Shown: in pieces, positions 3,053 through 28,436 of the stretch
How positions within the stretch are numbered: the stretch's first letter is position 1
Layout of the letters: every line of letters begins with the position of its first letter
NCBI GenBank assembly: GCA_045614865.1
Contig: JAZLDS010000002.1
Location: 4,252 to 68,251, forward strand
Direction of reading: 5' to 3'
From: Paludibacteraceae bacterium
Lineage (GTDB): Bacteria > Bacteroidota > Bacteroidia > Bacteroidales > Paludibacteraceae
Length of the DNA: 64,000 nt
Program-made: the position numbers and the translations under genes
Notes under the pieces: model-generated
Database searches by the model: none
What the model was told of the DNA's origin: nothing
What the model saw: the letters and a program-made list of their open reading frames with translations, nothing else

Positions 3053-3137
3053 AATTGTATTTTATTTTTTGGTTAATATACTAAACACTCAACAGTAGCA
3101 GCTCCGCCGCGTCCTCTAAACAGGCGCTCCGCGCCCT

Positions 3138-4420: not shown

Positions 4421-4433
4421 AGATTAATTTTCT

Positions 4434-4471
4434 TTCACCTTATCACACTATCACATTAAAATATGTGTTGA
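4434..4471. repeat. junction repeat (B-box + hairpin only)
   Basis: TCACCTTATCACACTATCACA 4435-4455; CACAT-N6-ATGTG 4452-4467. It ends at the stop of the GIY-YIG gene. Confidence 0.95.
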
Positions 4472-5299: not shown

Positions 5300-5316
5300 G
5301 GTAATTATTCTGTTTG

Positions 5317-5359
5317 ACTCCACCTTATCACACTACCACATTAAAAAATGTGTTGATAT
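5317..5359. repeat. junction repeat (B-box + hairpin only)
   Basis: CTCCACCTTATCACACTACCACA 5318-5340; CACAT-N6-ATGTG 5337-5352. It ends at the stop of the DUF2075 gene. Confidence 0.95.
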
Positions 5360-7414
5360 CTATATCTCCTTCACCCCTAGTTGCTTCAAATACTCATATG
5401 TTCCATTATAGAACGCATGATTGCGGGTTGGATCTTCTTTAGAACCCTCCGGCACGCAAATCACCATACCTTGACGTGCTCGAGTCAACAATACACGATA
5501 GGCGTTGAGTAAGTATGCTTTGCGGTCGTCCTTGTTGATTCTATTCCATTTGGTTCCGCCACTAAATTCGTAGAAAGCCCAATCGTTATCCTGACGACGT
5601 AAATCACCATCCCATACAAGGCATGTCCAATCCAATTCAAGACCTTGCACATCAAACTCAGAAGCAGCATCCTCCAAGAACAAAGAAGAACGTACATCAT
5701 TAATATCATCCAAGAACCAATGGACTGTATCCGGCTTACAACGAACATCAATAGCCAATGGCTTCAATCGATATGCTTTAGATGATACAAGCAAACCATA
5801 ACGCTCATTTCCGCGTGCTCGCTCACGGAGCCAAGCTTTGGCTTTGTCTAAATCTCTAGTTAAAACGATAGGGTATCGGTCTGCTATCTGAGCATACGTA
5901 TCACGAGCACTATCAATATCTCCATCAAGAATATAATGTACAATATGAGATAAACTCTCAGCACGGAAGCTACGCATAGAAACAGCCAAGTGCAAGTCCT
6001 CGGAGAATGTGACACGAGGATTATCCGACAGCAACTCCTTCACCTTTCCTTCGGCATACTCTTTGGCGGTCAGCTGGCTAGAGATATACACATTCCAATT
6101 AGGGAATGTTTCATTGAGTGCGCGAATCCATTCGCCGATACCCGCTTCGCCTGTATTAATTTCTTGTCCACCACCTACTAGACAAACAATGACTGCCCAG
6201 TCTGGACGTTGATCAAGCGACCAAATAAGGAATTCGCTTTCGGACATCGGGAAATCAGCAAAGCCCTTTTTACGCTTCAACCAACCAGCAATATGCTCTT
6301 TGTCCCACGAGCGTTGCGCCTCATCAAAGATAGCTATATTCTCCACCTCGCCATAACCAGCTGTCTGGTCTTTGAGCTCTTTGGTAGGGTCGATAACCAG
6401 TTGTCCGTTTTCCAGCATTACTTTGCTGAGCATATTATCACGATAGCGGTGGATAATCTGAATAAAGCGTTTTACCTCTCGTTCTGCTTCTTTCTTAGTA
6501 ATCTTATTGCCCTTTGCTTTCTTTTGCGCTTGTTTATCACGCGTGAGTGCTTCGGTAAGAACTTCTACCAGCGGACCATTACCGGACAAATAGACAGCTA
6601 AATCTTGGTCTTCCTCTTGCTGTACAGCCACGTTGAGTCCAACGAGCGTTTTACCAGCACCTGGAACTCCTGTTACAAAGCAAATACTCTTGCCTCTTTG
6701 CGCTTTGGTCTGACGGATGACGTCTTGTACGTATCGAGTAGTATTATCCAATTGTGCGCCTTCAGATTCGTGTTTAGTAATATCCGCAACACTATGATTA
6801 AGATAAAGCGAACGTGCCGCTTCTATGATAGTGGGCGTAGGTGCATAGCGACTACGAGCCCAATCGGACATGGCAACGGCATAGGTTGTAGATATCGCGT
6901 TTTCAGACAACACAAGAGCTATTGCGTCTGACAAATACTCCGCATTAGTCATCATTGGCTCATAGATGCCGTCATCATAATGTGAAGGTTGGCACAACGT
7001 AGCATAAGAATTGCTGTCAGTCGCTACGAGAATAGGAACGATAGCACGATCCACGCTACCTTGATGGAAATTCTTAAGGTCGAGAGCATAGTCTAAGACT
7101 TGATCTACGTCATGACGAAGGAAATTCTCCTCGCCTGCCTTGAACTCAATAACGAATACGCGTTCACGAAGCAAAAGAACTACGTCTATGCGTTTACCTA
7201 AACGGGGAATAGTGTATTCGAAAATGATTTGCCCTACTTCGTTAGCGTAAGGTACAAGAACAGACTTCATGATGTCGATTTCTTGTGACCATGCAAACTT
7301 CTGGGTAGAGGCGGTATCCATCTCATCCGCACGAGCCATGACACCAAATATCTGGTCTGTATTCTCAGACAAGAAAGTAGCGATATCTGCTTGATAAAAG
7401 AATCTGTTAGTCAT
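5360..7414 (-). CDS. DUF2075-type nuclease-helicase (Schlafen-like P-loop NTPase with N-terminal PD-(D/E)xK-like module)
   Basis: 684-aa ORF. RIDVVLL..VFVIEFK (nuclease-like), Walker A GVPGAGKT, Walker B-like IAIFDEAQ, and UvrD_C-like YRVLLTRARQGMVICV. TAACTTTG box lies upstream. Confidence 0.8.
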   Translation of the reverse strand: MTNRFFYQADIATFLSENTDQIFGVMARADEMDTASTQKFAWSQEIDIMKSVLVPYANEVGQIIFEYTIPRLGKRIDVVLLLRERVFVIEFKAGEENFLRHDVDQVLDYALDLKNFHQGSVDRAIVPILVATDSNSYATLCQPSHYDDGIYEPMMTNAEYLSDAIALVLSENAISTTYAVAMSDWARSRYAPTPTIIEAARSLYLNHSVADITKHESEGAQLDNTTRYVQDVIRQTKAQRGKSICFVTGVPGAGKTLVGLNVAVQQEEDQDLAVYLSGNGPLVEVLTEALTRDKQAQKKAKGNKITKKEAEREVKRFIQIIHRYRDNMLSKVMLENGQLVIDPTKELKDQTAGYGEVENIAIFDEAQRSWDKEHIAGWLKRKKGFADFPMSESEFLIWSLDQRPDWAVIVCLVGGGQEINTGEAGIGEWIRALNETFPNWNVYISSQLTAKEYAEGKVKELLSDNPRVTFSEDLHLAVSMRSFRAESLSHIVHYILDGDIDSARDTYAQIADRYPIVLTRDLDKAKAWLRERARGNERYGLLVSSKAYRLKPLAIDVRCKPDTVHWFLDDINDVRSSLFLEDAASEFDVQGLELDWTCLVWDGDLRRQDNDWAFYEFSGGTKWNRINKDDRKAYLLNAYRVLLTRARQGMVICVPEGSKEDPTRNHAFYNGTYEYLKQLGVKEI

Positions 7415-14557: not shown

Positions 14558-17173
14558 TTATCTTACCTTAGTCAAGTCGCGCAAGTGAGCGTTGAAAGCG
14601 TCCTTCTTCAAGAGCTCCTCGAGGGTGAGGTGCATGCGGTAGTTCCAGAAATGCTCTGGATTAGAAGGCAAGTTGATACGCTCTGCGTGTTGGTCAGCCA
14701 AACGGATCTCACCATCGATAGCAAACCAGTCTTGCAATGGCAAGATCACCCACATAGCAGGGCTATACATGTGCTGATTAACGATGAACTCAGCAATCTC
14801 TGGAGTCATCACTTGTGGAGCTTCACCCCACCAACCCATTTGCTCGTTGTAGAACTTCTGAGTCACAGCGCGGTCCTCTTCCCACCAAGCACGAACAGGG
14901 TTCATATCGTGGGTACCGATGGTACAAACGCTCATATATGGCGCATCAGCAGGATGTGCAAACGCTACGGTTGGGTCCTTAGGCATGCGTTGGATCTCCA
15001 ATGATAGGATCTGCAATTGGCTCATCACATCAGGCACACAAGAAGGCACCATACCCAAGTCCTCGCCGCAGCAGAGCATGTCGGTAGCAGCAATGAGGGT
15101 AGGGAGTTTCTTGAGCGCTGACTCGCGCCAGAAGGATGTATGACGGTGGTAGAAATAGTCGTTGTGGATATCAGCCAAGAGTTGACGTTGGTCAGCATAG
15201 AGCTCTTGGTAGTTGTGCGACTGATAGAGCGCGATGCGTGGATGGAGCATCGATGGGTTCTTTTGGTCGCGCACGAAGAGCACCTCGCAATGCAAGTACA
15301 AGAGACCATTCATCACATTGTCGATATTGCAATGGTTCTCGTGAGCCGCACGGTTCTCAGGGTTGAGGAAGAAGGCCTGTACCTTGCGTTGGGTATCCAA
15401 GTACTCTGGGAAGAAATAGATATATCCGTCGTTGGTGCAGAGGAAATTGTTCTTCACATACTCGGTATCATAACCGAAAGTATCACCCAAGAAGTTAGAG
15501 CAGATATATGGTTTGGTGAGGCGATCCTCATCGAGCTTCACGCCCATGTTCCAGAGGTCGTGCATAGAGTATGGCATAGCAGGAGAGAAGTGACCGCAGA
15601 GGCCCCAAACATCCGTTTTGCGCATTTGCCAGATACGGAAGAAACCGAGGATATGGTCCACGCGGTATGCATCGAAATAGTCCGCCATCTTGGTGAAGCG
15701 GAACTTCCACCATTGGTAGTCGTCCTCAGCCATCACATCCCAGTTGTAAGTAGGGAAGCCCCAGTTCTGACCGCGTGCATCGAAATCATCTGGTGGCGCA
15801 CCCGCAGATGCAGAGAGGTTGAAGAGGTGAGGATCGGTACTTGCGTCCACAGAGTCAGGAGAGATACCAATAGGTATATCGCCCTTAAACGCGATACCTA
15901 CAGAGTGTGCATAGTCCACCGCTTCGCGGAGTTGTTTGTCCGCATGGAACTGGAGATAGCAGTAGTAGTCCTTAGGTTGTTTGTCGCGCTTAGACATGAA
16001 CGCAGCGTATGGGAGCAACCATCCCTCGTTGGCAGCGAGGAAAGCTTTGTACTCCTCAGAAGCAAAGAGCTCAGCTTTATTAGCTTTGTAGAGCGCCTTG
16101 AAGTATTTGATTTTCTCGTCATATACACATTGGTAGTCGGCGATAGTCTTCGCATTGAACTCGGCTTGGGTAGCGCGGTACTTCTTGAGTTGCGCAGGAG
16201 TGAGCTCGCCCATCTTTTCGATATTGAGGTAGATTGGGTGGAGTGCGAAGACGCTCACAGCGTTGTATGGATATGAGTCGTGGTTGTTGTGACGGAGCGT
16301 AGTGTCGTTGATAGGGAGGGTCTGGATCATCTTTTGACCTGTGAGTTTCGCCCAATCAGCGAGGAGCTTGAGGTCTTGGTACTCACCAATACCGAAGCCG
16401 TTCTCTGAACGGAGAGAGAACACAGGTACGGCTACGCCGGCACCCTTCCAGTTGGCTTGTGTGTAGCGGAAAGGAGAGTCGGTGAGCACATAGTGCTTAG
16501 CGCGTTGGATATCCCAGATCTTGCGGTTCTCGCCCCACTCCATATCCACGATCTCGCCTGATTGGAGATCATAGATCACGTACTTGTACTCTACTACAGA
16601 ACCGAGCTTAGCGTGGAAAGTGGCGGTCCATTCTGGGTTGTAGTTAGGCGATGAGGCGATAAGGCTATCAGGCGATTGGCTATTGGTCATAGGGAGTTTC
16701 TTAGCGCGATCCCATTCGCCGAGAGATGCGATATTACCCATGATAGCTACCCCTTGGTTGCGCTCGAGACGAGGCACATTGACTTTCACGGTGATGTTGC
16801 CAGTAGCTTTCTTAGCCGCTACAGGAGCACGGTGCGCGAAGAGCACTTGGCTGAAGACCTTAGATGCGAAGAGCGATTGGTCTTTGTCTTGCCAAAGGTC
16901 GCGGAGCACCACGTTGCCTGGTTGGCACTCAACCACGTGAGCTTTAGCCTCGCGGCGGATGATGTTGCCTTGCTCGTCGAGTACTACGTAGCAGTAAGAA
17001 ACGAACTTATGAATGTCACTCAGGGTGACTTGTGCAGACCACTCAGCAGAACCGTGGCAATCCATAGCGAGTTGCAAAGGTGATGCGGTTTGGAGGTCAG
17101 CATCCATCGCATATAGGACAGCAAGTTGGTTGCCCCATTGCGCTTGGTAGTTGATTGAAAAATGAAGTGTCAT
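14558..17173 (-). CDS. malQ: 4-alpha-glucanotransferase (GH77) with N-terminal starch-binding-like modules
   Basis: 871-aa ORF. GH77 motifs YRVDHILGFFRIW, CGEDLG and GTHD. A hairpin terminator follows. Confidence 0.9.
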   Translation of the reverse strand: MTLHFSINYQAQWGNQLAVLYAMDADLQTASPLQLAMDCHGSAEWSAQVTLSDIHKFVSYCYVVLDEQGNIIRREAKAHVVECQPGNVVLRDLWQDKDQSLFASKVFSQVLFAHRAPVAAKKATGNITVKVNVPRLERNQGVAIMGNIASLGEWDRAKKLPMTNSQSPDSLIASSPNYNPEWTATFHAKLGSVVEYKYVIYDLQSGEIVDMEWGENRKIWDIQRAKHYVLTDSPFRYTQANWKGAGVAVPVFSLRSENGFGIGEYQDLKLLADWAKLTGQKMIQTLPINDTTLRHNNHDSYPYNAVSVFALHPIYLNIEKMGELTPAQLKKYRATQAEFNAKTIADYQCVYDEKIKYFKALYKANKAELFASEEYKAFLAANEGWLLPYAAFMSKRDKQPKDYYCYLQFHADKQLREAVDYAHSVGIAFKGDIPIGISPDSVDASTDPHLFNLSASAGAPPDDFDARGQNWGFPTYNWDVMAEDDYQWWKFRFTKMADYFDAYRVDHILGFFRIWQMRKTDVWGLCGHFSPAMPYSMHDLWNMGVKLDEDRLTKPYICSNFLGDTFGYDTEYVKNNFLCTNDGYIYFFPEYLDTQRKVQAFFLNPENRAAHENHCNIDNVMNGLLYLHCEVLFVRDQKNPSMLHPRIALYQSHNYQELYADQRQLLADIHNDYFYHRHTSFWRESALKKLPTLIAATDMLCCGEDLGMVPSCVPDVMSQLQILSLEIQRMPKDPTVAFAHPADAPYMSVCTIGTHDMNPVRAWWEEDRAVTQKFYNEQMGWWGEAPQVMTPEIAEFIVNQHMYSPAMWVILPLQDWFAIDGEIRLADQHAERINLPSNPEHFWNYRMHLTLEELLKKDAFNAHLRDLTKVR

Positions 17174-18276: not shown

Positions 18277-18350
18277 GGCGGGATAGCTCAGCTGGTTAGA
18301 GCGCATGATTCATAATCATGAGGTCCCCAGTTCAATCCTGGGTCCCGCTA
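18277..18350 (+). tRNA. tRNA with CAT anticodon (elongator Met, or Ile2 if lysidine-modified)
   Basis: Cloverleaf read by hand: acceptor GGCGGGA/TCCCGCT, D-arm GCTC-AGCTGGTTA-GAGC, anticodon arm CATGA-TTCATAA-TCATG, T-arm CCCAG-TTCAATC-CTGGG. Confidence 0.9.
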
Positions 18351-18355
18351 CAAAA
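18305..18355 (+). repeat. attL core (3' part of the functional tRNA)
   Basis: ATGATTCATAATCATGAGGTCCCCAGTTCAATCCTGGGTCCCGCTACAAAA, identical to 28353-28403. Confidence 0.95.
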
Positions 18356-18360
18356 AAAGA

Positions 18361-18400
18361 ATCAGACACTTAGGTAAAATCCTGAATGTCTGATTTTTTT
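18361..18400 (+). terminator. terminator following tRNA(CAT), supplied by the inserted element
   Basis: Stem ATCAGACA/TGTCTGAT followed by T7. Confidence 0.7.
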
Positions 18401-18403
18401 GTT

Positions 18404-18430
18404 AAACCTACAACAAAACCTACAACATTT
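18404..18430 (+). repeat. internal sub-terminal repeat (candidate integrase arm site), left copy
   Basis: AAACCTACAACAAAACCTACAACATTT, itself a tandem of AAACCYACAAC. It matches 28227-28253 with one mismatch. Confidence 0.85.
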
Positions 18431-19019
18431 ATTTCTTATTTCCCATTAACCACTTCTCTAATTCGGTTACATTGATTCTTAATGCACATCCTTTTCCCTC
18501 CTGTTTGCAAGGGTAAAAGTTGTGTTTTTTACGCCATTGTGCATCCTTGACAGATTTTACACCTTTGAAGGAGTATTGTTTGATTAATTCGTCATAGGTT
18601 ATCCATTCGGCATTATGGTTACTTTGAGTATCTGACATAACAATGACTTCTGGTGCACTTGGAAGCTCAGGGAATAATTCCTCTATCATCTTCATTATTT
18701 TGTCGTAATAGTAAAGTTTGATTCCCTTTATATTGTACAAAGTATAATACCATGCAGCATCCTTCTTTAGGTCTGTATTAGTATCTATATCGTGTGTTAT
18801 CATTTCTATATCGATATTATCAATAGAAAGATAAGCATCCATTCTTGGGATTAAATCTTCGACCTGAATTTTGGTTGCTTGGTTTAATTCAGAAAAATCC
18901 GCTGCGGCAAACAATTCAGACAAATGACTGGTGTATTCTTCTGAAGTCTTAAATCCGTTAAATGTGTAATTGGTATGATTAACCTCTAAGCGAAGCAACT
19001 CTTTAATAAATGCTTTCAT
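18429..19019 (-). CDS. hypothetical protein with C-terminal excisionase-like HTH (possible Xis)
   Basis: 196-aa ORF. The C-terminal roughly 50 aa (EWITYDELIKQY..CALRINVTELEKWL) resembles the excisionase/MerR-type HTH of Bacteroidales elements. It lies next to attL, 4 nt after the XRE gene. Confidence 0.45.
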   Translation of the reverse strand: MKAFIKELLRLEVNHTNYTFNGFKTSEEYTSHLSELFAAADFSELNQATKIQVEDLIPRMDAYLSIDNIDIEMITHDIDTNTDLKKDAAWYYTLYNIKGIKLYYYDKIMKMIEELFPELPSAPEVIVMSDTQSNHNAEWITYDELIKQYSFKGVKSVKDAQWRKKHNFYPCKQEGKGCALRINVTELEKWLMGNKK

Positions 19020-19023
19020 GGTA

Positions 19024-19377
19024 TTATTTCTCTAATATTACTCTACTATCGTCAAACATTCTTTGTAGCAAATTCTGCAAATCCACTTGAGAGTTTATTT
19101 CAAAAGGTTCTCCTTTATAAACAAGAATACCGTACAAATCTTTTTGGTTATCTTGCTCAGGTTTCTTGAATAGTTCAGGAACTGACACATCGAGTGCCTC
19201 TGCCACCGCTGCCAATGTTGAATATTGAGGATTTCCACCCGATAGAACTCTTGATAATGCTTCACGTGCCATTCCAATTCGCTCTGCAAGTTCTGCTATC
19301 GTCATTCCTTTTGCCTTTAACAATTGTTTTACGCACAAATCGTCATGCGTAAGATTTTTCTTATAATATTCCTTCAT
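19024..19377 (-). CDS. XRE-family HTH transcriptional regulator
   Basis: HTH segment MTIAELAERIGMAREALSRVLSG. The ORF-track GTG 19401 abuts the -7 box (19404-19411), upstream of the expected transcription start, so ATG 19377 is preferred. Confidence 0.75.
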   Translation of the reverse strand: MKEYYKKNLTHDDLCVKQLLKAKGMTIAELAERIGMAREALSRVLSGGNPQYSTLAAVAEALDVSVPELFKKPEQDNQKDLYGILVYKGEPFEINSQVDLQNLLQRMFDDSRVILEK

Positions 19378-19403
19378 ATTGTATGTGATGTTAAAAATCA
19401 CGG

Positions 19404-19561: not shown

Positions 19562-19924
19562 ATGACAACAATCACTACTATCAACAATTACAATGGTATT
19601 AACTCGATGGTTATTAATAATACAACTGCCCGTCATGCAGCAGTTATCGCGCGCCGTACAGGGTCTATGGAGATGGGCATGATGAAATCATTAATGATAG
19701 ATAACCTTAAAATTAAACTTCAAACAGGAGTAGCACATTTTTGGTATAAGAAGGTGGATGGTTCGGTTCGTGAAGCATGGGGAACTACTTCTCATCAACT
19801 TATGCAGGATAAGATTATTGGAACTGGGTACACCGGGGAACAAGTGAATGTAGTTAAATATTGGGATGTTTTGAAGGGAGGTTTTCGTTCGTTGCGCTAC
19901 GAAAATTTGATAGCGATTGAATAA
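19562..19924 (+). CDS. WYL_2/DUF2693-like SH3 beta-barrel protein
   Basis: FWYKKVDGSVREAWGTT and VVKYWDVLKGGFRSLRYENL resemble the DUF2693 family found on Bacteroidales mobile elements and phages. TACCTTTG box lies upstream. Confidence 0.5.
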   Translation: MTTITTINNYNGINSMVINNTTARHAAVIARRTGSMEMGMMKSLMIDNLKIKLQTGVAHFWYKKVDGSVREAWGTTSHQLMQDKIIGTGYTGEQVNVVKYWDVLKGGFRSLRYENLIAIE

Positions 19925-20088: not shown

Positions 20089-20757
20089 ATGACACAATCT
20101 GCAATAATATATGCCCGAACCTCATCCTCTGGCTCTATGGTTAATCGCCAAAATACCGACCGACAAACATATTCTTTGACGAAACTTATTGAAGCAAACG
20201 GAGACCACCTACTTCGTTCTTTTGAAGAACACATTTCAGGCGCAACAAAAAATCATGAACGCACAATTCTCAACGAGTGTATAGAATTTGCTATTCAGAA
20301 CAAAGTTGATATAATATACTTTAGTTCGCTGGATCGATTAGGTCGTGCAATATGGGAGGTTCAAGAAAATATCAAGCGTTTGTTGGATAATAAAATCAAC
20401 GCTTATTTTCAAAAAGAACAAATGTCTTTGTTTATCGAAGGTAAAGAAAATCCCTTCTTAGCAATATTTATTGCGGTTATTGCTACGTGTTCACAGATAG
20501 AGCGAGAAAGCATCCAATTCCGCTTAAATGATGCAAGACAAAAGAAGAAGGAATTAGCTATTGCTGCGGGAAAGACATTAGCAGAAGCAGGATTTGGTCG
20601 TCCGAGGGGTTCTTTCAAAAGCAAAGAACAGGCGCAAGAAGAATATAAAGAAGCATTATCTTTGCTGCGGAAGGGATATTCAGTTAGGAATGTAGCGAAA
20701 ATTCTAAATAAAAGTAAGACCACAATTCAGAAGATAAAGAACATGTTCGACTTGTAA
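20089..20757 (+). CDS. serine recombinase (resolvase/invertase family)
   Basis: N-terminal catalytic region IIYARTSSSGSMVNRQNTDRQ and SSLDRLGR. C-terminal HTH VRNVAKILNKSKTTIQKI. Confidence 0.8.
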   Translation: MTQSAIIYARTSSSGSMVNRQNTDRQTYSLTKLIEANGDHLLRSFEEHISGATKNHERTILNECIEFAIQNKVDIIYFSSLDRLGRAIWEVQENIKRLLDNKINAYFQKEQMSLFIEGKENPFLAIFIAVIATCSQIERESIQFRLNDARQKKKELAIAAGKTLAEAGFGRPRGSFKSKEQAQEEYKEALSLLRKGYSVRNVAKILNKSKTTIQKIKNMFDL

Positions 20758-20776
20758 ATGAAGGGCGGATATATGT

Positions 20777-20822
20777 AAAATGATTGATATAAATACAATA
20801 ATGTAGATGTATCAATCATTTT
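20777..20822 (+). terminator. 13-bp-stem hairpin after the serine recombinase gene (terminator or recombinase site)
   Basis: AAAATGATTGATA (20777-89) pairs with TATCAATCATTTT (20810-22); 20-nt loop. Confidence 0.5.
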
Positions 20823-20879
20823 ATTTATGTATTCCTATTGAAATCTTAAAAAAGATTTGTTAGTATCAGCATTTTTTTG

Positions 20880-20887
20880 TAACTTTG
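20880..20887 (+). promoter_or_regulatory. -7 box TAACTTTG (Type IIG RM operon)
   Basis: TAnnTTTG match 19 nt upstream of ATG 20906. Confidence 0.65.
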
Positions 20888-20905
20888 CCACCAAATTTTA
20901 GTACT

Positions 20906-23881
20906 ATGGCACTCTTTCAAAAAAATGTATTAAAGAAGCACTTGTCACTACTGGACAAAAGTGTGGTAACAGAAGCATACAAACGTTACCAATCATATTT
21001 TCTAAATACAGAAATACAAAGTAACATACGCAGTAGTAAGGAGGAGCAATTCCAAGAGGGATTTCTTCGTGAGTTATTTGTCAGGGTGCTTGGCTATACT
21101 TTAAATCCAAGTCCTAATTACAATTTAATTACAGAGCAGAAGAATGAAACTAATGCAAAGAAGGCAGATGGAGCAATCCTTGTAAATGGAAATGTAGTAG
21201 GTGTCATAGAATTAAAGGATGGCAAGACAACTGACTTGTCAAAGGTTGAGCAACAAGCATTTGGCTATAAAAGTCAGAACAAGAATGCAACATATGTTAT
21301 TATATCCAATTTTGAAAAACTTCGTTTTTATATAGATAACGCAGTTGAATATTATGAGTTCGACTTATTTCATTTGACGGAGAATGAGTTTGCAATTTTA
21401 TACTTATTATTGGCATATCCTCAGATAGAGAGAAATATTCCTAAACATATCAAAGAAGAATCTTTGTCACGAGAAGATGCTGTAACCAAAGCACTTTACA
21501 AGGACTATTCGGAATTTAAGAGAGAGTTATTTGCGAATATTCTTGAGCAGAATAAGGTAGATACGATAGATGAAAAGGTTGTTTTATTTAAAAAGACCCA
21601 AAAACTTCTGGATCGATTACTCTTTATTTTCTTTGCCGAGGATTCACTACTCCTTACACCAAATACCATGATTCGCATTATTAGCGATTGGGAGAAACTA
21701 AAAGAACTTGATGAGTATAAACCTTTGTATGAAAGAATAAAAAAGTATTTTGATTGGCTGAATCATGGTTACAAAGGTAAAGATTTTGAGGTGTTTGCAT
21801 ATAATGGTGGTCTTTTCAAAAACGATGACGTGTTGGATAGTCTGACTATTAGCGATGATGTGCTGCTAAAACACACACGTAAATTGAGTGAGTATGATTA
21901 TGCGAGTGAAGTGGATGTAAACATATTAGGGCATATCTTTGAAAACTCTTTGACCGAAATAGAAGATATAACCAATCAACTAAAAGAAGGTGGCTCTCCA
22001 TCTATTAGTAAACGTAAAAAGGATGGTGTTTTCTATACTCCTCAATATATTACAAAATACATAGTTGAGAATACCATTGGGAAATTATGTTATGATAAAA
22101 AGGCAGAGTTTGGGATTGTCGAATCTGAGTACTTCAGCGATAAAAAGAGACAAATAGCAACTAAAAAATCACTTTTGGATAAGTTAGAGAATTATCGAGA
22201 TTGGTTAAAAAACATAACTATATGTGACCCCGCTTGTGGTAGCGGTGCTTTCCTTAGTGCAGCACTACAATTTCTAAAGAAGGAGCATCATCTCATTAAC
22301 GAAATGCAAGCCAAGGTAACAGGAGGAGGAATTGCGTTTGCTTATTTTGATAACGATATTTTAGAGAACAATCTATATGGTGTGGATATAAACGAAGAAA
22401 GCGTAGAGATTGCTAAATTGGCTCTATGGTTGCGAACAGCCCAACCAAATCGTAAGCTTAGTTCGTTAAATAACAATATAAAGTGTGGTAATTCACTTGT
22501 TTCTGATCCTACTATTGCAGGCGATAAAGCATTTGATTGGGAAACAGAATTTCCTGAAGTATTTGAACATGGAGGATTTGATGTGATAATTGGCAATCCG
22601 CCATATGTTGTATTGCCTCCAACTCAATTACAGAGTTATCGTTACACAAAGGGAAATAATAACACATATGTTGCATTTGTTGAGCAAATACTTAGAATAA
22701 CAAATGATAAAAAAAATATTGGTTTAATTATTCCTACCACATGGTATGCTGGTGACAATTATTTAGATTTTAGAAATTATTTACTTTCAGAGAAATTGAT
22801 TCGACAAATAATACAATTACCATATAATATATTTGAAGCATATATAGATACAACTATTGTAATACTGAATGGAGAGAGTCAGCAGAAAGAAGTATCTGTT
22901 TATAAATATGATATTCATAATAATACTCACGAAATTAATGTGGATGCTTTTGAATATATTGATTCTTCTATTTGGTTGAAATATGGAAAAGTATTTTTAA
23001 ACAAGCAATTAATAAGCATATTTGATAAAGTGTGGAATAATGCTATTAATGTAAAACTTGGTACTATTGCTTCTGTTAATAGAGGTTGTTTACCACCTAA
23101 AGAGCATGAGTTGTCAAAAATAAAAGATTCATATTATAATATTCCATGGTTCTCATCTCAGGTTTTTAGATATACTATTGATACGCAAAGCAGGGATTAT
23201 GTGTCTTATGAAAATTTAAGAGAAAATAAAGCAATAGAATTGTATAATTCTGTCCCAAAGATTATGGCGCGACAATTATTAAGTCGTCAGTTTCGTATTA
23301 ATATGACTTTAATAACAGAGCCAACAGCATTTAAGAAAAATCTCTATGCAATCTATAATGTTGATCCCAAAATAGATATTCGCTATTTACTTGCATATTT
23401 AAATAGTAAATTATTTAGTTATTGCGAAGTAAACTTTAATTCGTCCTTGCAAAGAGATGATTTTCCTGCATTTAGTCTAACAGATTTTAAAGAATTTCCA
23501 ATTCCAATTGTGTCTCCATCTGAGCAATATCATTTCGTCAATCTTGTCAACTCAATGCTTGCGTTAAATAAAAATTTACAGGCTAAACGCAATCGTTTTT
23601 ATCATCGTTTAAAAGATAATTTTTTGAATGTAAAGATTACTGGTGCACTTGAAACATTTGACTTGTTGGATTTTAAACAATTTCTTCTCGAACTGAATAA
23701 ACAGAAAATAAAACTATCGTTGGTTCAACAGGATGAGTGGGAGGAGTATTTTGGTCAGTATAAATTGGAGTGCAATACCATTTCAGAGCAAATTTCTGAC
23801 ACCGATAAACAAATCGATCGATTAGTATATCAACTCTACAACTTAACAGAAGATGAGATAGCAATGGTAGAACAAAGTTGA
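20906..23881 (+). CDS. Type IIG restriction-modification enzyme (MmeI/Eco57I-like fused endonuclease-N6-adenine methyltransferase-specificity protein)
   Basis: PD-(D/E)xK ADGAILVNGNVVGVIELK near the N-terminus. SAM motif DPACGSGAFL, catalytic IGNPPYV, and a long C-terminal TaqI_C-like specificity region. The ORF-track TTG 20885 lies in the -7 box (20880-20887), so ATG 20906 is preferred. Confidence 0.85.
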   Translation: MALFQKNVLKKHLSLLDKSVVTEAYKRYQSYFLNTEIQSNIRSSKEEQFQEGFLRELFVRVLGYTLNPSPNYNLITEQKNETNAKKADGAILVNGNVVGVIELKDGKTTDLSKVEQQAFGYKSQNKNATYVIISNFEKLRFYIDNAVEYYEFDLFHLTENEFAILYLLLAYPQIERNIPKHIKEESLSREDAVTKALYKDYSEFKRELFANILEQNKVDTIDEKVVLFKKTQKLLDRLLFIFFAEDSLLLTPNTMIRIISDWEKLKELDEYKPLYERIKKYFDWLNHGYKGKDFEVFAYNGGLFKNDDVLDSLTISDDVLLKHTRKLSEYDYASEVDVNILGHIFENSLTEIEDITNQLKEGGSPSISKRKKDGVFYTPQYITKYIVENTIGKLCYDKKAEFGIVESEYFSDKKRQIATKKSLLDKLENYRDWLKNITICDPACGSGAFLSAALQFLKKEHHLINEMQAKVTGGGIAFAYFDNDILENNLYGVDINEESVEIAKLALWLRTAQPNRKLSSLNNNIKCGNSLVSDPTIAGDKAFDWETEFPEVFEHGGFDVIIGNPPYVVLPPTQLQSYRYTKGNNNTYVAFVEQILRITNDKKNIGLIIPTTWYAGDNYLDFRNYLLSEKLIRQIIQLPYNIFEAYIDTTIVILNGESQQKEVSVYKYDIHNNTHEINVDAFEYIDSSIWLKYGKVFLNKQLISIFDKVWNNAINVKLGTIASVNRGCLPPKEHELSKIKDSYYNIPWFSSQVFRYTIDTQSRDYVSYENLRENKAIELYNSVPKIMARQLLSRQFRINMTLITEPTAFKKNLYAIYNVDPKIDIRYLLAYLNSKLFSYCEVNFNSSLQRDDFPAFSLTDFKEFPIPIVSPSEQYHFVNLVNSMLALNKNLQAKRNRFYHRLKDNFLNVKITGALETFDLLDFKQFLLELNKQKIKLSLVQQDEWEEYFGQYKLECNTISEQISDTDKQIDRLVYQLYNLTEDEIAMVEQS

Positions 23882-23888
23882 TAGGGAT

Positions 23889-25313
23889 ATGAAAACCAAT
23901 GAAGAGCAAATAAGACGCATTGAGGACTATATCCAACATGGTCAGACCTTAGATGTTAGCAAACTTCGCCATTTCCTACTGAATGGTGCTGACGTTCCTT
24001 TGTATTGCATAGGTAGTGGTGGATTTGGTTTATCTATGAAACTCTGTGCGTTGCTTTATTCTGCTAATAAAGGGATGGCGCAAGCATGTACACCATTATT
24101 AATGAATCACGTATCAGACGCTACCTTAAAGAAATGCAAAGTCCTATTTTATAGTAAAGGTGGCAGTCAAGTTGATACAGGTTGGTTGTTCAAGCGAATG
24201 GCAGCGTTGAATCCACAAGGTATATTTGGGCTCGGTGCATTTAATCCAACATCCAAACATGCTAATACTATGATTAATCAGATCAGAGAAATTAGTGAAA
24301 ATTGGTGTTTATTCAATCTAAAAAAGGATAAAGAAACATTTGTTTCTACTGCTTCACACCTCACGATGACCACAGCAATATATCGTGCGTTTACTAACGA
24401 CGACAATCCTTTGCAAAGATTAACGCTGAGTGTGGATCATAACTATACATACGTTAATCGTGATGGAAGTACTCATTCACTACCCGCATTGAAAGACATT
24501 AAAACATATATCGCACTATTTGGTGGTTGGGGAGAACCTGTAGCCGCATCCTTCGAGAGTATTATGACTGAAGCAGGTCTTGCAAATGTACAAATATGTG
24601 ATCTGCGTAATTGGTGTCATGGTCGTTTTATATTCTTAAGTAATCACATAGAAGATTCTGTTTTGCTTTTATACTTAACTCCACGAGAAAAAGAGTATGC
24701 TATGCGATTGCTAAATGAAACAGGTATCTACGATAAAAACAAGTCTATTTTCCCTAATAACGTTCATATAATAACCATAGAGACGGAATACGATGAACCA
24801 TTAGCAACATTAGATTTAGCAATCAAAAATATCATGCTATTAAACGATATTGCTAACTCTTATGGGGTTGATATCGAGAATCCGATTAATAAGAGTGGAA
24901 TAGACAAACGTTTCCCTCGACGATTTAAGATGAAAGAACAAAAAGAGTTTGGTTCCGTTAATCTTGATTTTGGAAGAGCAGGAACATTAAAGGGAGTCTC
25001 GCGAAAAAAAGTCATCAATTATAATCCCCGATTGTCAATTGAACAACTCGCCAAGAAAAATAATGTATCCGCAGCAACTATACGACTATATATAAAAAAG
25101 AACCATATAGACAGAGAAAGAGACTCTCAATTATTGATATATTTAAGCATACATAAAAATATCAAAAAATATCCAAACATTACCATTAAAGACTTAGCAA
25201 AAAAAGCAAAATGCTCTGTCGCTACTGCAAAGAAATATATGGAAATGAAGACGTTCGACATACCCGTAAGGGAAGGACATGTTTCGCTTGTACACGATGA
25301 TATAAATAATTAA
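23889..25313 (+). CDS. double SIS-like domain protein with two C-terminal HTH motifs (unknown function)
   Basis: 474-aa ORF starting 7 nt after the RM stop. First SIS-like unit: LYCIGSGGFGLSMKLCALLY and FYSKGGSQVDTGWL. Second unit: FGGWGEPVAASFESIMTEAGLANVQICDLRNWCHGRF, reminiscent of the GlmS/AgaS isomerase SIS. HTH-like segments: SIEQLAKKNNVSAATIRLYIKK and TIKDLAKKAKCSVATAKKYM. Confidence 0.55.
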   Translation: MKTNEEQIRRIEDYIQHGQTLDVSKLRHFLLNGADVPLYCIGSGGFGLSMKLCALLYSANKGMAQACTPLLMNHVSDATLKKCKVLFYSKGGSQVDTGWLFKRMAALNPQGIFGLGAFNPTSKHANTMINQIREISENWCLFNLKKDKETFVSTASHLTMTTAIYRAFTNDDNPLQRLTLSVDHNYTYVNRDGSTHSLPALKDIKTYIALFGGWGEPVAASFESIMTEAGLANVQICDLRNWCHGRFIFLSNHIEDSVLLLYLTPREKEYAMRLLNETGIYDKNKSIFPNNVHIITIETEYDEPLATLDLAIKNIMLLNDIANSYGVDIENPINKSGIDKRFPRRFKMKEQKEFGSVNLDFGRAGTLKGVSRKKVINYNPRLSIEQLAKKNNVSAATIRLYIKKNHIDRERDSQLLIYLSIHKNIKKYPNITIKDLAKKAKCSVATAKKYMEMKTFDIPVREGHVSLVHDDINN

Positions 25314-25334
25314 ATAAATTTCATACAAGCACCA

Positions 25335-25375
25335 ATAGGGTAAGACGTATATGCCACGTTTTACCCTATTTTTTG
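25335..25375 (+). terminator. terminator of the RM / double-SIS operon
   Basis: Stem ATAGGGTAA/TTACCCTAT followed by TTTTTTGTTTTT. Confidence 0.7.
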
Positions 25376-25483: not shown

Positions 25484-25738
25484 TTAATTTTCTTGAGTTT
25501 TTCGTCCATTTAGATAGTCTTGCATGCTTAAGTTTCCCGGTTGTTTGTTTTTGTCATATTCTGCCTTTGAAGGAATACCTCGCCAATACCTTTTCATTGC
25601 TTCTGACTGCTTACGCGCACATGCTCGCGCTGCTTCGGTTCCTTTGCTTTGATGGTATGCTTTCATCGATTTTGAAATAAGTTCTTTTGTTTCTGGGGTG
25701 TGTTCCCGAAATTGTCTCTTGTTGTATGTATTTTCCAT
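25484..25738 (-). CDS. small NUMOD3-motif protein (hypothetical)
   Basis: 84-aa ORF. HTPETKELISKSMKAYH resembles the NUMOD3 DNA-binding motif of homing endonucleases. No nuclease domain is present. Confidence 0.35.
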   Translation of the reverse strand: MENTYNKRQFREHTPETKELISKSMKAYHQSKGTEAARACARKQSEAMKRYWRGIPSKAEYDKNKQPGNLSMQDYLNGRKTQEN

Positions 25739-25997: not shown

Positions 25998-26810
25998 ATG
26001 GATAAAAAATTAAAAGTAAATCTTGATAGGTTAGAGGTTACCTATACTTGCTCCACAGAATGGAGAGAAATATTAGCAGATTCTAATAGATTAGTCTGCG
26101 GAGAGAATGGCGAAATAATATTGGAACGAGCAGAATCCACAACTTCATTATACAAGCATAACTATCGGGTGCTTTGTGATAATATCTTTGTCGGAAACTT
26201 GTTTTTTGGAAGCTATAATCCTAATCGCCCTTATATATATCTTGCTGTCGATAATAAGATGTTGTACACCCATTTAGCAGGCATAACTTATATTGAACAA
26301 GCATTGAATTTGCAATATTATCGCATTAGCAAGTTAGATATATGTTTAGACACCAATAGGAATATTATCAATAAGTTTTATAGATTATTGAAGGATGATT
26401 CAAAAACTATAATTATCAATAATAAAAGTATTAGGGATAGACGAGCTATTGTAGAAAATTTGATACATTTTTCTTCTGGATCATTAAGGTCAATTCGTAA
26501 GATTAAATCATTTATTATAAAAGGTAATGAGATAGAACTTGCAGGGTATAACAAGGGATTGGAAATAGATAAAACTGAGAAATATTATATCAAAGACAAT
26601 TTAGGGTTAGGCAATAAAATATATCGTTTAGAAATAAGGATGACCAATTACAAACAAATTAGTAAAGCATTAGAAATGTGTGCCATTAAAATGGATGAAA
26701 TATATTATAATCCATTTGGAGAATGTTTAAACAGAGTGTTTTACTATACTTTAAATCGAATTATTAGAATAAAACCTAATATTAGTATATTAGATTATCT
26801 CTTCAACTAA
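25998..26810 (+). CDS. possible Rep_trans-like replication initiator (hypothetical)
   Basis: 270-aa ORF. LDRLEVTY, YRISKLDICLDT and IYRLEIRM loosely recall the conserved blocks of Rep_trans (PF02486) rolling-circle initiators. It is preceded by a 260-bp AT-rich repeat-containing region. Weak call. Confidence 0.35.
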   Translation: MDKKLKVNLDRLEVTYTCSTEWREILADSNRLVCGENGEIILERAESTTSLYKHNYRVLCDNIFVGNLFFGSYNPNRPYIYLAVDNKMLYTHLAGITYIEQALNLQYYRISKLDICLDTNRNIINKFYRLLKDDSKTIIINNKSIRDRRAIVENLIHFSSGSLRSIRKIKSFIIKGNEIELAGYNKGLEIDKTEKYYIKDNLGLGNKIYRLEIRMTNYKQISKALEMCAIKMDEIYYNPFGECLNRVFYYTLNRIIRIKPNISILDYLFN

Positions 26811-26947: not shown

Positions 26948-28192
26948 CTATTTGTTAAGCATTGATGATATGTAATCTTTTGTTTTAAGCATTAAATCAT
27001 TTGTGATAGACTTTAAATACGTCTGTGTGGTCTTTAAATTTTTATGTCCAAGCAGTAACATTAACTGCTCTGCAGAAATCTTATGTTCCGCAGCATTGGC
27101 AGCAAAAGTATGTCGAATGTTATATGTGGTAAATGGTTCTATGTCTATTTCCCTACAAATTATTCGAATTCCCTTATTTATTCTTTTAATGACATCGCTC
27201 CGTTTGCTTGCTTGTTGTGCCTCGGTCATATTCTCCCGATAAAAAGGTAAGATGTAGGCATCAGGTTTTTTACTATTTATTACGCCATATTTCTTTAGAA
27301 GTTCCTTTACGTCGTCGGTAAGAGGAACGCCAACATTTGTGTCCACTCGTTCTGTTTTTTTACGAGTGAAATGTATCTGCTCATTAATGATAGAACGATT
27401 TTTTAATGATAGAATATCAGCAATATTTGCGCCACACATTGCAAATGATAGCATCGTAAAATCGTAGGCAAAATGAGTTAGGTCAGTCTGTGGAGAATAT
27501 GACCAAAACTTTTGCCAATCGTTAAGTTCTACTGCACGTTTGCTTCGTTCCGTTTGGATTATTTTAATTTTGGATGTTGGATTAGTTGTGATAATACCCT
27601 TCTCAATCGCAAAGTTAAATAAAGCACGCAATCCCCTCATGTACATTCCTAACGTATTTGAGGATATATCTTTATCATACTTATTTCTATATTGATTCTT
27701 TAGGTAACTTTCAAAACTTCTCAAAATCTCGTTCGTGGTATCTTGAATAGTTAATTCAGGATTGTACTTTTTAATCCAATTTATTGCAGTTCGGTAACTT
27801 TCAATTGTATTTGGTTTACATTGCTTCTCACGATTATATTCTTCCAATAAGAGATCAAAAGAGACCTTGTTTGATACAATGTGTTTGCCATAAACTTTTT
27901 GGTCGTATAGAATCTTAAATTGAGGGAAAGTAAATGATGCTCCAAGTTGCTCACATATTGAACAAGCAACTTTATAATCCTCCTCAGCTATTGCAAACGC
28001 TTCTTTTGTCTTTTTTAGACGTGGATTTTCAAATTCTTCCTTAGATAGGAGTTGTTTGCTGCGGGTTGTATATATTCTATTTACGCGCTGAAAGGTAACT
28101 CTTATCTTTATAGAACTAAGAATTCGAGTTTGTTTTTTGTTTGGAAACCATACTAAATTAACTTGGGCAATAGAATACATAATCTTGAACAT
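26948..28192 (-). CDS. tyrosine site-specific integrase
   Basis: 414-aa ORF. C-terminal catalytic region with FTRKKT, NIRHTFA, LLGHKNLKTTQTYL (R..HxxR..H..Y). SAM-like N-terminal domain typical of Bacteroidales integrases. TACCTTTG box lies upstream. Confidence 0.9.
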   Translation of the reverse strand: MFKIMYSIAQVNLVWFPNKKQTRILSSIKIRVTFQRVNRIYTTRSKQLLSKEEFENPRLKKTKEAFAIAEEDYKVACSICEQLGASFTFPQFKILYDQKVYGKHIVSNKVSFDLLLEEYNREKQCKPNTIESYRTAINWIKKYNPELTIQDTTNEILRSFESYLKNQYRNKYDKDISSNTLGMYMRGLRALFNFAIEKGIITTNPTSKIKIIQTERSKRAVELNDWQKFWSYSPQTDLTHFAYDFTMLSFAMCGANIADILSLKNRSIINEQIHFTRKKTERVDTNVGVPLTDDVKELLKKYGVINSKKPDAYILPFYRENMTEAQQASKRSDVIKRINKGIRIICREIDIEPFTTYNIRHTFAANAAEHKISAEQLMLLLGHKNLKTTQTYLKSITNDLMLKTKDYISSMLNK

Positions 28193-28352: not shown

Positions 28353-28403
28353 ATGATTCATAATCATGAGGTCCCCAGTTCAATCCTGGGTCCCGCTACA
28401 AAA
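28353..28403 (+). repeat. attR core (displaced partial tRNA 3' half)
   Basis: The same 51 nt as 18305-18355. No tRNA 5' half lies upstream of it. Confidence 0.95.
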
Positions 28404-28404
28404 G

Positions 28405-28436
28405 AAAAAGCAACCTAATTCAAGGTTGCTTTTTTT
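28405..28436. terminator. original tRNA terminator, shared with the convergent porW-like gene
   Basis: Stem AGCAACCT/AGGTTGCT, flanked by A-rich and T7 runs. Confidence 0.7.

Follow-up and report, generated by a model that had tools for sequence, protein, structure and literature searches.

Introduction

Type IIG restriction-modification (RM) enzymes of the MmeI/Eco57I family carry their nuclease, methyltransferase and target-recognition domains in one polypeptide, and exchange of the target-recognition domain is the usual route by which specificity changes in this class. Controller (C) proteins of RM operons are small (~80-100 aa) Xre-type helix-turn-helix (HTH) proteins encoded upstream of the restriction (R) gene, whose expression requires them. 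SIS modules bind sugar phosphates having a free anomeric carbon; in Escherichia coli GlmS, Glu488 is the catalytic base and His504, 16 residues away, is the ring-opening residue. The RpiR/MurR regulators join one such module to an N-terminal HTH_6 domain. Defence systems are also found as cargo at hotspots of integrative elements and satellites, of which the P4-like ones are an example. Here we compare these systems with a locus from a Paludibacteraceae bacterium (GenBank assembly GCA_045614865.1, contig JAZLDS010000002.1, positions 4,252 to 68,251), analysed as one stretch of 64,000 nt that we call the window. In this locus, a gene for a 991-aa Type IIG enzyme is followed, 7 nt after its stop codon, by a gene for a 474-aa protein that is predicted to consist of two SIS units and two HTH units.

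A second body of work bears on this locus. ADP-ribosylation of DNA, RNA and proteins, together with its reversal, is an active field of phage-bacterium conflict that takes in DarT/DarG, NADAR, ADP-ribosylglycohydrolases (ARH) and the depletion and reconstitution of NAD+, and gut and rumen Bacteroidales are poorly covered by it. NADAR enzymes also hydrolyse other ribosyl-5-phosphate N-glycosides, YbiA being an example. Two reports describe NADAR as removing ADP-ribose from guanine in DNA and acting as an antitoxin to DarT (PMC11543638, PMC11125620). A survey of ARG-centred host systems predicts that they combine ADP-ribose-sensing HTH regulators of the Nudix and WYL types with phosphatases, NADAR and nuclease effectors (PMC9503650).

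An earlier note on this DNA had proposed that the 474-aa protein could be a partner of the RM enzyme, acting as its controller, as its specificity or targeting subunit, or in a sugar-based DNA-modification or sensing function. Comparison with related elements suggests instead that the 474-aa protein is probably not a dedicated partner. The reading that we favour, to which we assign a probability of about 0.55, is that it is a one-component ADP-ribose-responsive DNA-binding protein that belongs to the island or defence locus and is not specific to this RM enzyme.

Results

Linkage of the two genes across related elements

The RM and SIS-HTH genes lie in a ~10-kb element integrated into a tRNA-Met gene. 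For comparison, we assembled 177 profile hits from genome and metagenome scans and exact-protein look-ups. These comprise 172 family genes, which fall into 108 groups at 90% identity, and 54 of the 177 hits have an HTH tail of the window type, including four element proteins from outside the family. Genes in the related loci were called by a simple longest open reading frame (ORF) procedure with BLAST clustering, and the metagenomic contigs are often short.

The related elements share a layout in which XRE, WYL_2 and resolvase genes are followed by a variable cargo and then by the SIS gene. The cargo is a Type IIG RM gene in the window and in L010, L011 and L175, and a Type III RM system (an HTH gene, then N6_N4_Mtase, then ResIII) in L147, L149 and L150. 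In L028 and L170, the slot holds a Type ISP RM gene, GmrSD and a 143-aa ORF; in L091 and L093, a 127-aa ORF and a BspA-type leucine-rich repeat (LRR) protein; and in L015, L102 and L171, small unknown ORFs. The slot between resolvase or WYL_2 and the SIS gene is empty in L007 and L113, where the resolvase directly precedes the SIS-HTH gene. A 72%-identical homologue of the 474-aa protein follows a Type I hsdMSR operon in L001.

The RM enzyme, in turn, occurs without the 474-aa protein. Homologues at 62-73% identity follow the resolvase in the sibling elements L177-L179, which carry integrase, XRE, WYL_2, resolvase and NUMOD1 genes, and after these RM genes come only 75-129-aa ORFs unrelated to SIS. 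Co-occurrence is therefore not conserved in either direction, with the SIS-HTH gene present and RM absent in L007, L113 and L091 and the reverse in L177-L179. The family sizes differ as well: 76 homologues were found for the 474-aa protein, versus at least 8000 for the RM enzyme (E <= 1e-50) in the same database.

The upstream region of the RM gene points the same way. Its -7 box and 5' untranslated region (UTR) (TTTTnTGTAAnTTTGC...ATGGCA; window 20860-20915) are kept at L177:5960-6010 and L179:5960-6010. This stretch is common to elements that differ in backbone and in the presence of SIS, which argues that the RM gene travels as a promoter-bearing cassette, self-contained even in loci that lack the SIS gene.

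Taken together, these comparisons indicate that the 991-aa RM gene is exchangeable cargo with its own promoter, occupying a slot between the resolvase and the 474-aa gene, and that the 474-aa gene belongs to the resident genes of these islands. Because each gene occurs without the other in related elements, the two appear to be independent; as judged from these loci, neither needs the other and they do not make up a dedicated restriction system of two proteins. The partners that accompany the 474-aa protein's relatives more steadily are NADAR, ADP-ribosylglycohydrolase, HAD, ART-like and PfkB proteins. The earlier note had proposed co-occurrence with RM genes as a check on the pairing, and the outcome is divided: homologues are repeatedly the next gene after RM systems of Type I, Type III and Type ISP with GmrSD, but the linkage is obligatory for neither side.

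One of these loci is an observation in its own right. In L028:2805-11437, and also in L170, genes for a 1637-aa Type ISP RM enzyme, a GmrSD Type IV enzyme, a 143-aa ORF and a 480-aa SIS-HTH protein follow each other with gaps of 2-18 nt, a compact multi-restriction operon that ends in the SIS gene.

Fold and active site of the 474-aa protein

The earlier note had read two tandem SIS units from motifs and had named structure prediction as the way to check them. An AlphaFold2 model of the 474-aa protein, built on 29 homologues (pLDDT 86.6, pTM 0.73), shows two tandem SIS alpha/beta domains. When this model was compared with the PDB by Foldseek, all 50 of the top 50 matches were double-SIS phosphosugar isomerases or deaminases, with E down to ~1e-8, identity of ~14% and target-normalised TM-scores of 0.33-0.68. 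The matches include the GlmS isomerase domain, NagB-II, Lmo0035, AgaS, PH0510 and PGI. The predicted fold thus agrees with the motif-based call, and a profile alignment to NagB-II gives the same motif register.

Sequence searches see little of this fold. Among the matches listed for the 474-aa protein in Pfam (with the curated models PF01380 and PF13580), NCBIfam and PADLOC, none is to SIS, and Pfam and NCBIfam detect the HTHs only. SIS is likewise missing from the 25 most-matched Pfam families of 29 family members (alignment A1), even at E <= 10; a PDB sequence profile search with the same alignment gave no SIS link, and when the family was aligned by hhalign with one GlmS-isomerase and one AgaS sequence from E. 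coli, the probabilities stayed below 1%. The links to the SIS fold came solely from the structure search and from the profile of a sister subfamily fused to HAD phosphatases (SIS-HAD), which matches NagB-II (8eol, 3hba) by sequence at E 6.7e-5, plus a Pfam SIS match to the distant family member P0142 (3.5e-4, 20.8 bits versus a cutoff of 25).

In the NagB-II alignment, 'vGSGGS' pairs with 'VGRGSS' and 'SAsGrNkDIL' with 'SQSGRSPDIL' in the first unit, and 'ESKlsEAa' pairs with 'ALKLKEVC' and 'HG' with 'HG' in the second. The Glu/His register is that of the SIS-HAD subfamily and was transferred to the window protein via the family alignment. In this register, the window protein has the phosphate-binding Ser/Gly loops and the Glu and His of the second unit. 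E223, E228, R240, H244, G245 and R246 are invariant across the family alignments, and E228 and H244 are 16 residues apart, the spacing of E488 and H504 in GlmS. Because these residues are invariant, the double-SIS module looks like a competent binding or catalytic site and not a decayed fold.

The motifs that the earlier note quoted for this ORF are all present in the translation (CIGSGG at residues 40-45, YSKGGSQVDT at 88-97 and GGWGEP...HGRF at 212-247), and full-length homologues at 82-87% identity argue that the ORF is not due to chance. The two HTH units at its C-terminus hold up as well: the first is clear, and the second is weak in Pfam but helical in the model and conserved across the family.

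The twin HTH (LSIE..A.KN.V....IR.YIK...IDR..D) is mobile as a unit: a 294-aa element protein carries it at its N-terminus (L091:7151-8035; 39% identity over 77 aa, E 2e-9), and it is also N-terminal in SIS-NADAR proteins (P0071) that overlap Type III res genes.

Architectures and neighbours of the family

Searching 1.84 billion representatives with a profile of the SIS-only members returned 1350 representative clusters at E <= 1e-3, of which 868 reach E <= 1e-10. The genome hits are almost all from Bacteroidales, chiefly Prevotella, rumen and gut metagenome-assembled genomes, Alistipes and Muribaculaceae. By these searches and models, the family is uncatalogued, and its core is predicted to be a very divergent double-SIS module of the GlmS/NagB-II type.

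This module stands alone (~350 aa) or is joined to an ADP-ribosylglycohydrolase (~785 aa), to two HTHs (474-560 aa), to two HTHs and NADAR (686-830 aa), or to HTH, NADAR and ARH (1031-1272 aa). Other members have the order HTH_3, two SIS units and ARH, or the order Sel1-LRR-NADAR-kinase-SIS, and a large subfamily carries a Cof-type HAD phosphatase after the two SIS units (~630 aa).

The recurrent neighbours are of a similar kind. A 194-aa NADAR protein is found at 21 loci, a 201-aa ART-like protein at 18 (matching DUF3990, ART-PolyVal and PARP only weakly, at sub-threshold scores), a PfkB sugar kinase at 13, an ARH fusion at 13 and SIR2 at 6; stand-alone ARH, a DprA/SLOG protein and HTH-NADAR-ARH proteins also recur. 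NADAR, ARH, ART-like or PfkB is fused or at most four genes away in 40 of the 94 non-redundant loci with enough context, and in 14 of the 28 loci of HTH-tailed members. These neighbours were detected by hidden Markov models built on the same data, and the counts are lower bounds. As a control inside these loci, genes up to four positions from the SIS gene were compared with more distant ones: NADAR makes up 27 of 678 in the first set and 7 of 721 in the second (p = 3.5e-4), and ART-like genes number 17 and 1, respectively (p = 4.6e-5).

The relatives closest to the window give the most direct comparison. In the sister island L175/L176, which has the same tRNA-Met, the same backbone and an 82%-identical RM gene, the next gene encodes a 686-aa SIS-HTH-NADAR protein. 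Over 463 aa it matches the window protein at 56% identity, and beyond this stretch it runs on into a NADAR domain. This continuation suggests that the window protein is a NADAR-less form of SIS-HTH-NADAR. In L001, the gene after the 72%-identical homologue encodes a HAD-HTH-NADAR protein, and in L092, the gene after a 56%-identical homologue encodes a NADAR protein.

Near members without the HTH tail, we found large defence genes, namely DruE (1e-197), Hhe, DRT reverse transcriptases, IetA-like ATPases and Type II restriction endonucleases (REases), which suggests that the whole family lives in defence islands. The family is nearly absent from viral collections: one weak relative was found in 2.9 million viral contigs, and BFVD contains giant-virus GlmS-type folds only. 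An origin in phages, or a role as a phage counter-defence gene, is unlikely on these grounds, and PHROGs match the HTH only.

This setting also suits the main alternative, in which the SIS-HTH protein, with NADAR or ARH in its relatives, is an accessory that is selected at the 3' end of RM operons whatever their type and serves as an anti-counter-defence module for any nuclease effector. It could sustain restriction against phages that ADP-ribosylate defence proteins of the host, or it could mask or unmask DNA with ribosyl-type modifications. HTH-tailed homologues lie on the same strand directly after Type IIG, Type I, Type III and Type ISP plus GmrSD systems in ~6 of the 25 non-redundant contexts showing at least two upstream genes, and their places on separate family branches (34-72% identity) point to independent events. 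The junctions are tight, with a TAATG stop/start overlap between the Type III res gene and the SIS gene of L147 besides the 7 nt of the window, and the defence genes near non-HTH members fit the same idea. ADP-ribose-removing systems are also coupled with REase effectors in published predictions (PMC9503650). However, the same type of element holds the SIS-HTH gene without RM or with LRR surface-protein cargo, the RM gene occurs in sibling elements without it, and RM is the commonest cargo of any defence island, so that co-location alone predicts recurrence. We consider an accessory of this kind possible but rather unlikely.

The fold raises a different alternative, that of an ordinary phosphosugar enzyme or regulator of carbohydrate metabolism (for example an amino-sugar or ketosamine deaminase-isomerase like NagB-II, AgaS or FrlB) that hitch-hikes on the element and plays no part in conflict. 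In its favour, the structures nearest to the model are double-SIS enzymes of metabolism, and the positions of Glu and His are kept. A large subfamily also carries a fused Cof-type sugar-phosphate phosphatase, and PfkB sugar kinases are among the neighbours. Yet the recurrent neighbours do not include sugar transporters, phosphotransferase system (PTS) components or catabolic operons and are dominated by NADAR, ARH, ART-like, SIR2, SLOG and defence genes. Fusions to DNA-binding HTH, NADAR and ARH are repeated across the family, and the gene sits in integrative elements beside RM cargo. A purely metabolic role is thus improbable.

Two further gene strings deserve mention. In Prevotella-like chromosomes (L027:8625-10891, L033:8639-19282 and similar loci), an ART-like gene (201 aa), a NADAR gene (192 aa), SIS or SIS-ARH and PfkB are followed by an AddB-like PD-(D/E)xK nuclease, a UvrD/AddA-like helicase and sometimes SIR2, a conserved string that is a candidate reversible ADP-ribosylation module beside end-resection machinery. 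In L003:7277-9015, and also in L004-L006, the SIS-only protein P0063 comes right after a 208-aa DprA/SLOG-like protein (PF02481, LDcluster4), and upstream of this pair lie a WYL protein and three small unknown ones, another context of the nucleotide-sensor type.

An ADP-ribose-responsive DNA-binding protein as the favoured reading

In the reading that we favour, the double-SIS module would bind the ribose-5-phosphate end of free ADP-ribose or of a closely related phosphosugar, and would perhaps open or isomerise that sugar via the conserved Glu228 and His244. The twin HTH would hold the protein on DNA. Relatives carry the SIS-HTH unit together with NADAR and/or an ADP-ribosylglycohydrolase, in one chain or in neighbouring genes, and these enzymes would remove ADP-ribose from nucleic acids or proteins; the NADAR-less window protein would serve the island or defence locus generally. 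It would be a functional analogue of the Nudix-HTH (NrtR) or WYL-HTH regulators of ADP-ribose conflict systems, and it would be co-transcribed with the RM gene because the RM cassette inserted directly upstream. The sugar-sensing idea of the earlier note thus survives in part: a sugar-type ligand is retained, and its likely class has changed to an ADP-ribose-derived phosphosugar in view of the links to NADAR, ARH and ART-like proteins.

Several observations weigh against this reading. We infer ADP-ribose as the ligand from fusions and neighbours only, and the ligand could be another phosphosugar because the substrates of NADAR, as YbiA illustrates, extend beyond ADP-ribose. About half of the loci show no detected ADP-ribose-related neighbour. 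The window copy is itself an orphan, with no NADAR, ART-like or PfkB gene in the 64 kb. The ART identity of the commonest neighbour depends on sub-threshold Pfam matches and an H...Y...E-like conservation only, and the best match in a PDB profile search with this protein was an unrelated enzyme (E 0.007). Finally, the tight RM/SIS junctions and the recurrence of four RM types upstream of SIS-HTH genes leave room for a real functional coupling.

A broader proposal goes beyond the window protein. The divergent double-SIS module may be an unrecognised ADP-ribose-handling domain, either a sensor or an isomerase acting through Glu228 and His244, that together with HTH, NADAR, ARH, HAD, PfkB and ART-like proteins would define a new class of Bacteroidales defence or counter-defence systems, coupled on mobile islands to whichever restriction system fills the slot. 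We advance this only tentatively. In the open-access literature, we found no description of SIS modules in ADP-ribose or defence contexts.

Transcription signals and a possible controller role

The earlier note framed the pair as an operon with one promoter and one terminator, and both signals were recovered: a Bacteroidetes-type -7 box before the RM gene and a terminator with a 15-bp stem after the SIS-HTH gene. The -7 motif TAnnTTTG is enriched in the window, with 89 matches versus 58.7 +/- 8.6 in shuffles. The only other plus-strand match of this type upstream of the SIS-HTH gene, at 22828, lies ~1 kb inside the RM gene, and for this reason the two genes most likely form one transcript.

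An inverted repeat with 27-nt arms stands right after the resolvase stop codon. It is conserved in the sister elements L010, L011 and L175 and absent from L177 and L179, the SIS-less RM loci that keep the RM promoter. It is a probable terminator of the resolvase gene or a site bound by a recombinase or regulator. An operator of the RM gene is unlikely, as the repeat abuts the resolvase stop and is missing from SIS-less RM loci that have the same promoter.

These signals bear on the proposal that the 474-aa protein is a metabolite-sensing, C-protein-like controller of the RM operon that binds at 20758-20905 and tunes expression of the enzyme. Like a C protein, it is an HTH protein encoded in an RM operon. 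It combines two HTH units with a module of ligand-binding type, its gene lacks a separate promoter close by and is apparently transcribed from that of the RM gene, and a conserved inverted repeat (20771-20828) lies upstream. On the other hand, the RM promoter and 5' UTR are present in SIS-less elements, which suggests that the enzyme is expressed there without the 474-aa protein, and the inverted repeat looks like the resolvase's terminator. With 474 aa and a downstream position, the protein differs from the small, upstream-encoded C proteins in both respects. Its relatives carry enzymatic NADAR, ARH or HAD domains, and single-chain Type IIG enzymes have no separate R and methyltransferase (M) genes to time. 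On this evidence, it is quite unlikely that the protein is an analogue of C proteins.

The restriction-modification enzyme

The Type IIG assignment made in the earlier note is borne out by Pfam, by PADLOC and by every motif that it quoted. The ORF starts at ATG 20906 (an in-frame TTG lies further upstream, at 20885) and ends at 23881, and homologues at 82% and 98% identity argue against a chance ORF. In the methyltransferase and recognition part, Pfam finds Eco57I (7.6e-41), N6_Mtase (2.5e-23), MmeI_Mtase (1.4e-18) and TaqI_C (2e-10); at the N-terminus, HSDR_N (1.4e-5) and MmeI_N (1.2e-3); and in the spacer, MmeI_hel (1.4e-5). The PADLOC model REase_MTase_IIG matches residues 1-727 at 8e-235. 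The catalytic motifs are all present, with the PD-(D/E)xK nuclease represented by ADG (residue 87) and IELK (101), the S-adenosylmethionine (SAM) motif I by DPACGSGAFL (441) and motif IV by NPPY (564).

The polypeptide therefore has the full layout of the MmeI/Eco57I family, namely a PD-(D/E)xK nuclease (D88...E102-x-K104), a helical spacer, a gamma-class N6-adenine methyltransferase and a TaqI_C-type recognition domain. We found no notable difference from that family, and by its motifs and domains the 991-aa gene appears to encode a complete, self-sufficient and routine Type IIG enzyme, a member of a known family and one among its many close relatives.

For the proposal that the 474-aa protein directs the specificity or targeting of the enzyme as a subunit, only adjacency and the DNA-binding HTH units speak. 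The enzyme has its own TaqI_C-type target-recognition domain, its homologues swap their C-terminal region (72-77% identity over only the N-terminal 63-67%), and it occurs without the 474-aa protein. We regard such a role as very improbable.

Dozens of homologues of the RM enzyme (P0249, P0262-P0307) are 72-77% identical to it across only the N-terminal 61-69%, implying that the C-terminal recognition domain has been swapped among them and that many specificities may be carried on one scaffold. We also considered whether the pair belongs to a methylation-associated defence system (MADS), which has a gene set of the mad1-mad8 type with a MAD2 methyltransferase. The PADLOC mad1 match covers the HTH only (28 residues, 6e-7), the mad2 match (1e-19) is far weaker than that of the Type IIG model, and NCBIfam MAD2 scores 28 bits versus a cutoff of 720; this assignment was rejected.

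The tRNA-Met island

Coordinates of the locus are collected in Table 1. Two 60-nt repeats of the 3' part of the tRNA-Met gene, 10,048 nt apart, are the att sites of an integrated element, and GC is 0.32-0.35 inside the island (~18-28 kb) versus 0.43-0.51 outside. The sister elements L010, L175 and L176, which come from metagenomes, lie at the same tRNA-Met, and more distant related elements use tRNA-His, tRNA-Asn or tRNA-Pro. A segment inverted by the resolvase found no support, as no long inverted repeats flank the resolvase-RM-SIS block.

Table 1. Positions of the island features in the 64,000-nt window.
Feature	Position	Strand	Basis and remarks
tRNA-Met gene, integration target	18277..18351	+	ARAGORN; Rfam tRNA 68 bits
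Left 60-nt direct repeat (attL), 3' part of tRNA-Met	18305..18364	.	Repeat family D1; 95% identical to 28353-28412, spacing 10048 nt
196-aa island protein, no family match	18429..19019	-	Conserved in sister elements L010, L175, L176
XRE-type HTH repressor-like gene	19024..19401	-	Pfam HTH_3 1.6e-13; PHROG transcriptional repressors
WYL_2 (Sm-like SH3) small protein, element-family marker	19562..19924	+	Pfam WYL_2 2.4e-18; upstream of SIS-HTH genes in related elements
Serine recombinase (resolvase/invertase), left flank of cargo slot	20089..20757	+	Pfam Resolvase 1.7e-21 and HTH_7; PHROG DNA invertase 8e-29
Inverted repeat, 27-nt arms	20771..20828	.	Repeat search (pair I3); RNA fold -28.3 kcal/mol, z = -6.5
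Bacteroidetes-type -7 promoter box TAACTTTG of the RM cassette	20880..20887	+	Pattern TAnnTTTG
Type IIG (MmeI/Eco57I-like) single-chain RM enzyme, 991 aa, cargo gene	20906..23881	+	Pfam, PADLOC, motifs, at least 8000 homologues
Predicted double-SIS and twin-HTH protein, 474 aa	23889..25313	+	AlphaFold2 model, Foldseek, family alignments
First SIS unit, residues ~35-170, GSGG and YSKGGSQVD loops	23991..24398	+	Secondary structure of the model, motifs, NagB-II register ('VGRGSS', 'ISQSGRSPDIL')
Second SIS unit, residues ~200-330	24486..24878	+	Family-invariant E223, E228, R240, H244, G245, R246
HTH 1, residues 377-404	25017..25100	+	Pfam HTH_11 5.8e-7, HTH_24 5.9e-6, MerR 6.2e-6; PHROG DNA-binding protein 3e-9
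HTH 2, residues ~425-454	25161..25250	+	Weak Pfam MarR 3e-3, LacI 0.016; model helices 433-440, 444-452
Intrinsic terminator after the pair	25334..25370	+	15-bp stem and T run
84-aa NUMOD3-like small protein	25484..25738	-	Weak NUMOD3 match; homologues at the same position in L010, L147, L150
270-aa island protein, no family match	25998..26810	+	Conserved in L010, L175, L176
Tyrosine integrase of the island	26948..28192	-	Pfam Phage_int_SAM_5 7.6e-16, Phage_integrase 6.1e-13; PHROG integrase 4e-41
Right direct repeat (attR)	28353..28412	.	Repeat family D1

A GH77+CBM20 4-alpha-glucanotransferase gene (window 14558-17173) flanks the island. Its 39%-identical orthologue (L003:10008-12704; L004:9946-12648) flanks a different island in another Bacteroidales genome, one that runs from WYL to the DprA/SLOG-like gene and then the SIS-only gene; the common flank may reflect a shared insertion hotspot or coincidence. 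Elsewhere in the window, a second stretch of low GC (70-7414, ~0.37) looks like another defence or mobile island. Its genes, all on the minus strand, encode an AAA_14/DUF4143 ATPase (70-1404), a 401-aa HNH_3 protein (3215-4420), a 283-aa GIY-YIG protein (4472-5323) and a 684-aa Schlafen-group-3 helicase (5360-7414).

Discussion

What first looked like an RM enzyme with a SIS partner mostly dissolves into the architecture of an island, and in doing so exposes a large, unannotated and tractable family that appears to be tied to ADP-ribose conflict in gut Bacteroidales. The family numbers at least 1350 sequence clusters, goes unrecognised in curated libraries, and would link a phosphosugar isomerase fold, plausible as a catalyst, to domains that bind DNA and remove ADP-ribose. 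If the module does bind or convert ADP-ribose, it would be a new domain in the ADP-ribose toolkit and a new type of sensor beside Nudix and WYL. The compact, tRNA-integrating island family, with its fixed restriction-swapping slot, should also be useful for finding new Bacteroidales defence cargo.

In this last respect, the island resembles the P4-like and other defence-cargo hotspots, as conserved flanks (the resolvase and SIS-HTH genes) bracket a slot with interchangeable defence systems. The element family is a different one, being tRNA-integrating, of the Bacteroidales and ~10 kb long, and one of its flank genes is itself a candidate conflict gene.

Among proteins of known function, GlmS isomerase, NagB-II, AgaS and FrlB are the nearest to residues ~1-345 of the window protein, which share with them the predicted two-SIS fold, the loop motifs and the Glu...(15 residues)...His-Gly arrangement. 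The differences are considerable. At ~14% identity, the window protein is invisible to Pfam SIS models and to PDB sequence searches, and its family has additional invariant arginines (R240 and R246). The family is fused to HTH, NADAR, ARH or HAD and not to a glutaminase domain, and it is located in mobile or defence islands and not in sugar operons.

The RpiR/MurR regulators provide the nearest established sensor-HTH logic, with a DNA-binding HTH and a phosphosugar-type SIS in one chain. In the window protein, the order is reversed (SIS-SIS-HTH-HTH), there are two SIS units and not one, the two C-terminal HTHs are of another type (HTH_6 matches at E = 0.016, 15.7 bits versus a cutoff of 28.3), and residues of catalytic type are retained.

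With the DarT-NADAR pair (Schuller et al. 2023, PMC11543638; PMC11125620), the likeness is one of context. Many family members occur in strings of ART-like, NADAR and SIS genes, and NADAR is the domain fused to those relatives of the window protein that are closest to it among the differently built ones. No DarT (PF14487) match was found, however, and the ART-like neighbours match DUF3990, ART-PolyVal and PARP below threshold; the window contains neither the toxin nor a NADAR gene.

The ARG-centred systems (Iyer et al. 2022, PMC9503650) offer the closest parallel in organisation. They too combine an ADP-ribose-type sensor or enzyme with HTH, have ARH/ARG, NADAR and HAD phosphatases adjoining, use nuclease effectors and are modular in architecture. 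The window locus has no ADP-ribose hydrolase of the ARG/ARH, NADAR or Macro kinds, whereas its relatives carry such an enzyme as a fusion or in an adjacent gene. The survey names actinobacteria, planctomycetes and proteobacteria, and the present family is from Bacteroidales; the sensor here would be a double SIS, and the word 'SIS' appears nowhere in the survey's text. The SIS-HTH architecture fits the putative sensor logic of a one-component HTH regulator, and a WYL_2 gene is present in the island. Set beside these systems, the fold and the one-component logic of the 474-aa protein are known, and its architecture and its context are new.

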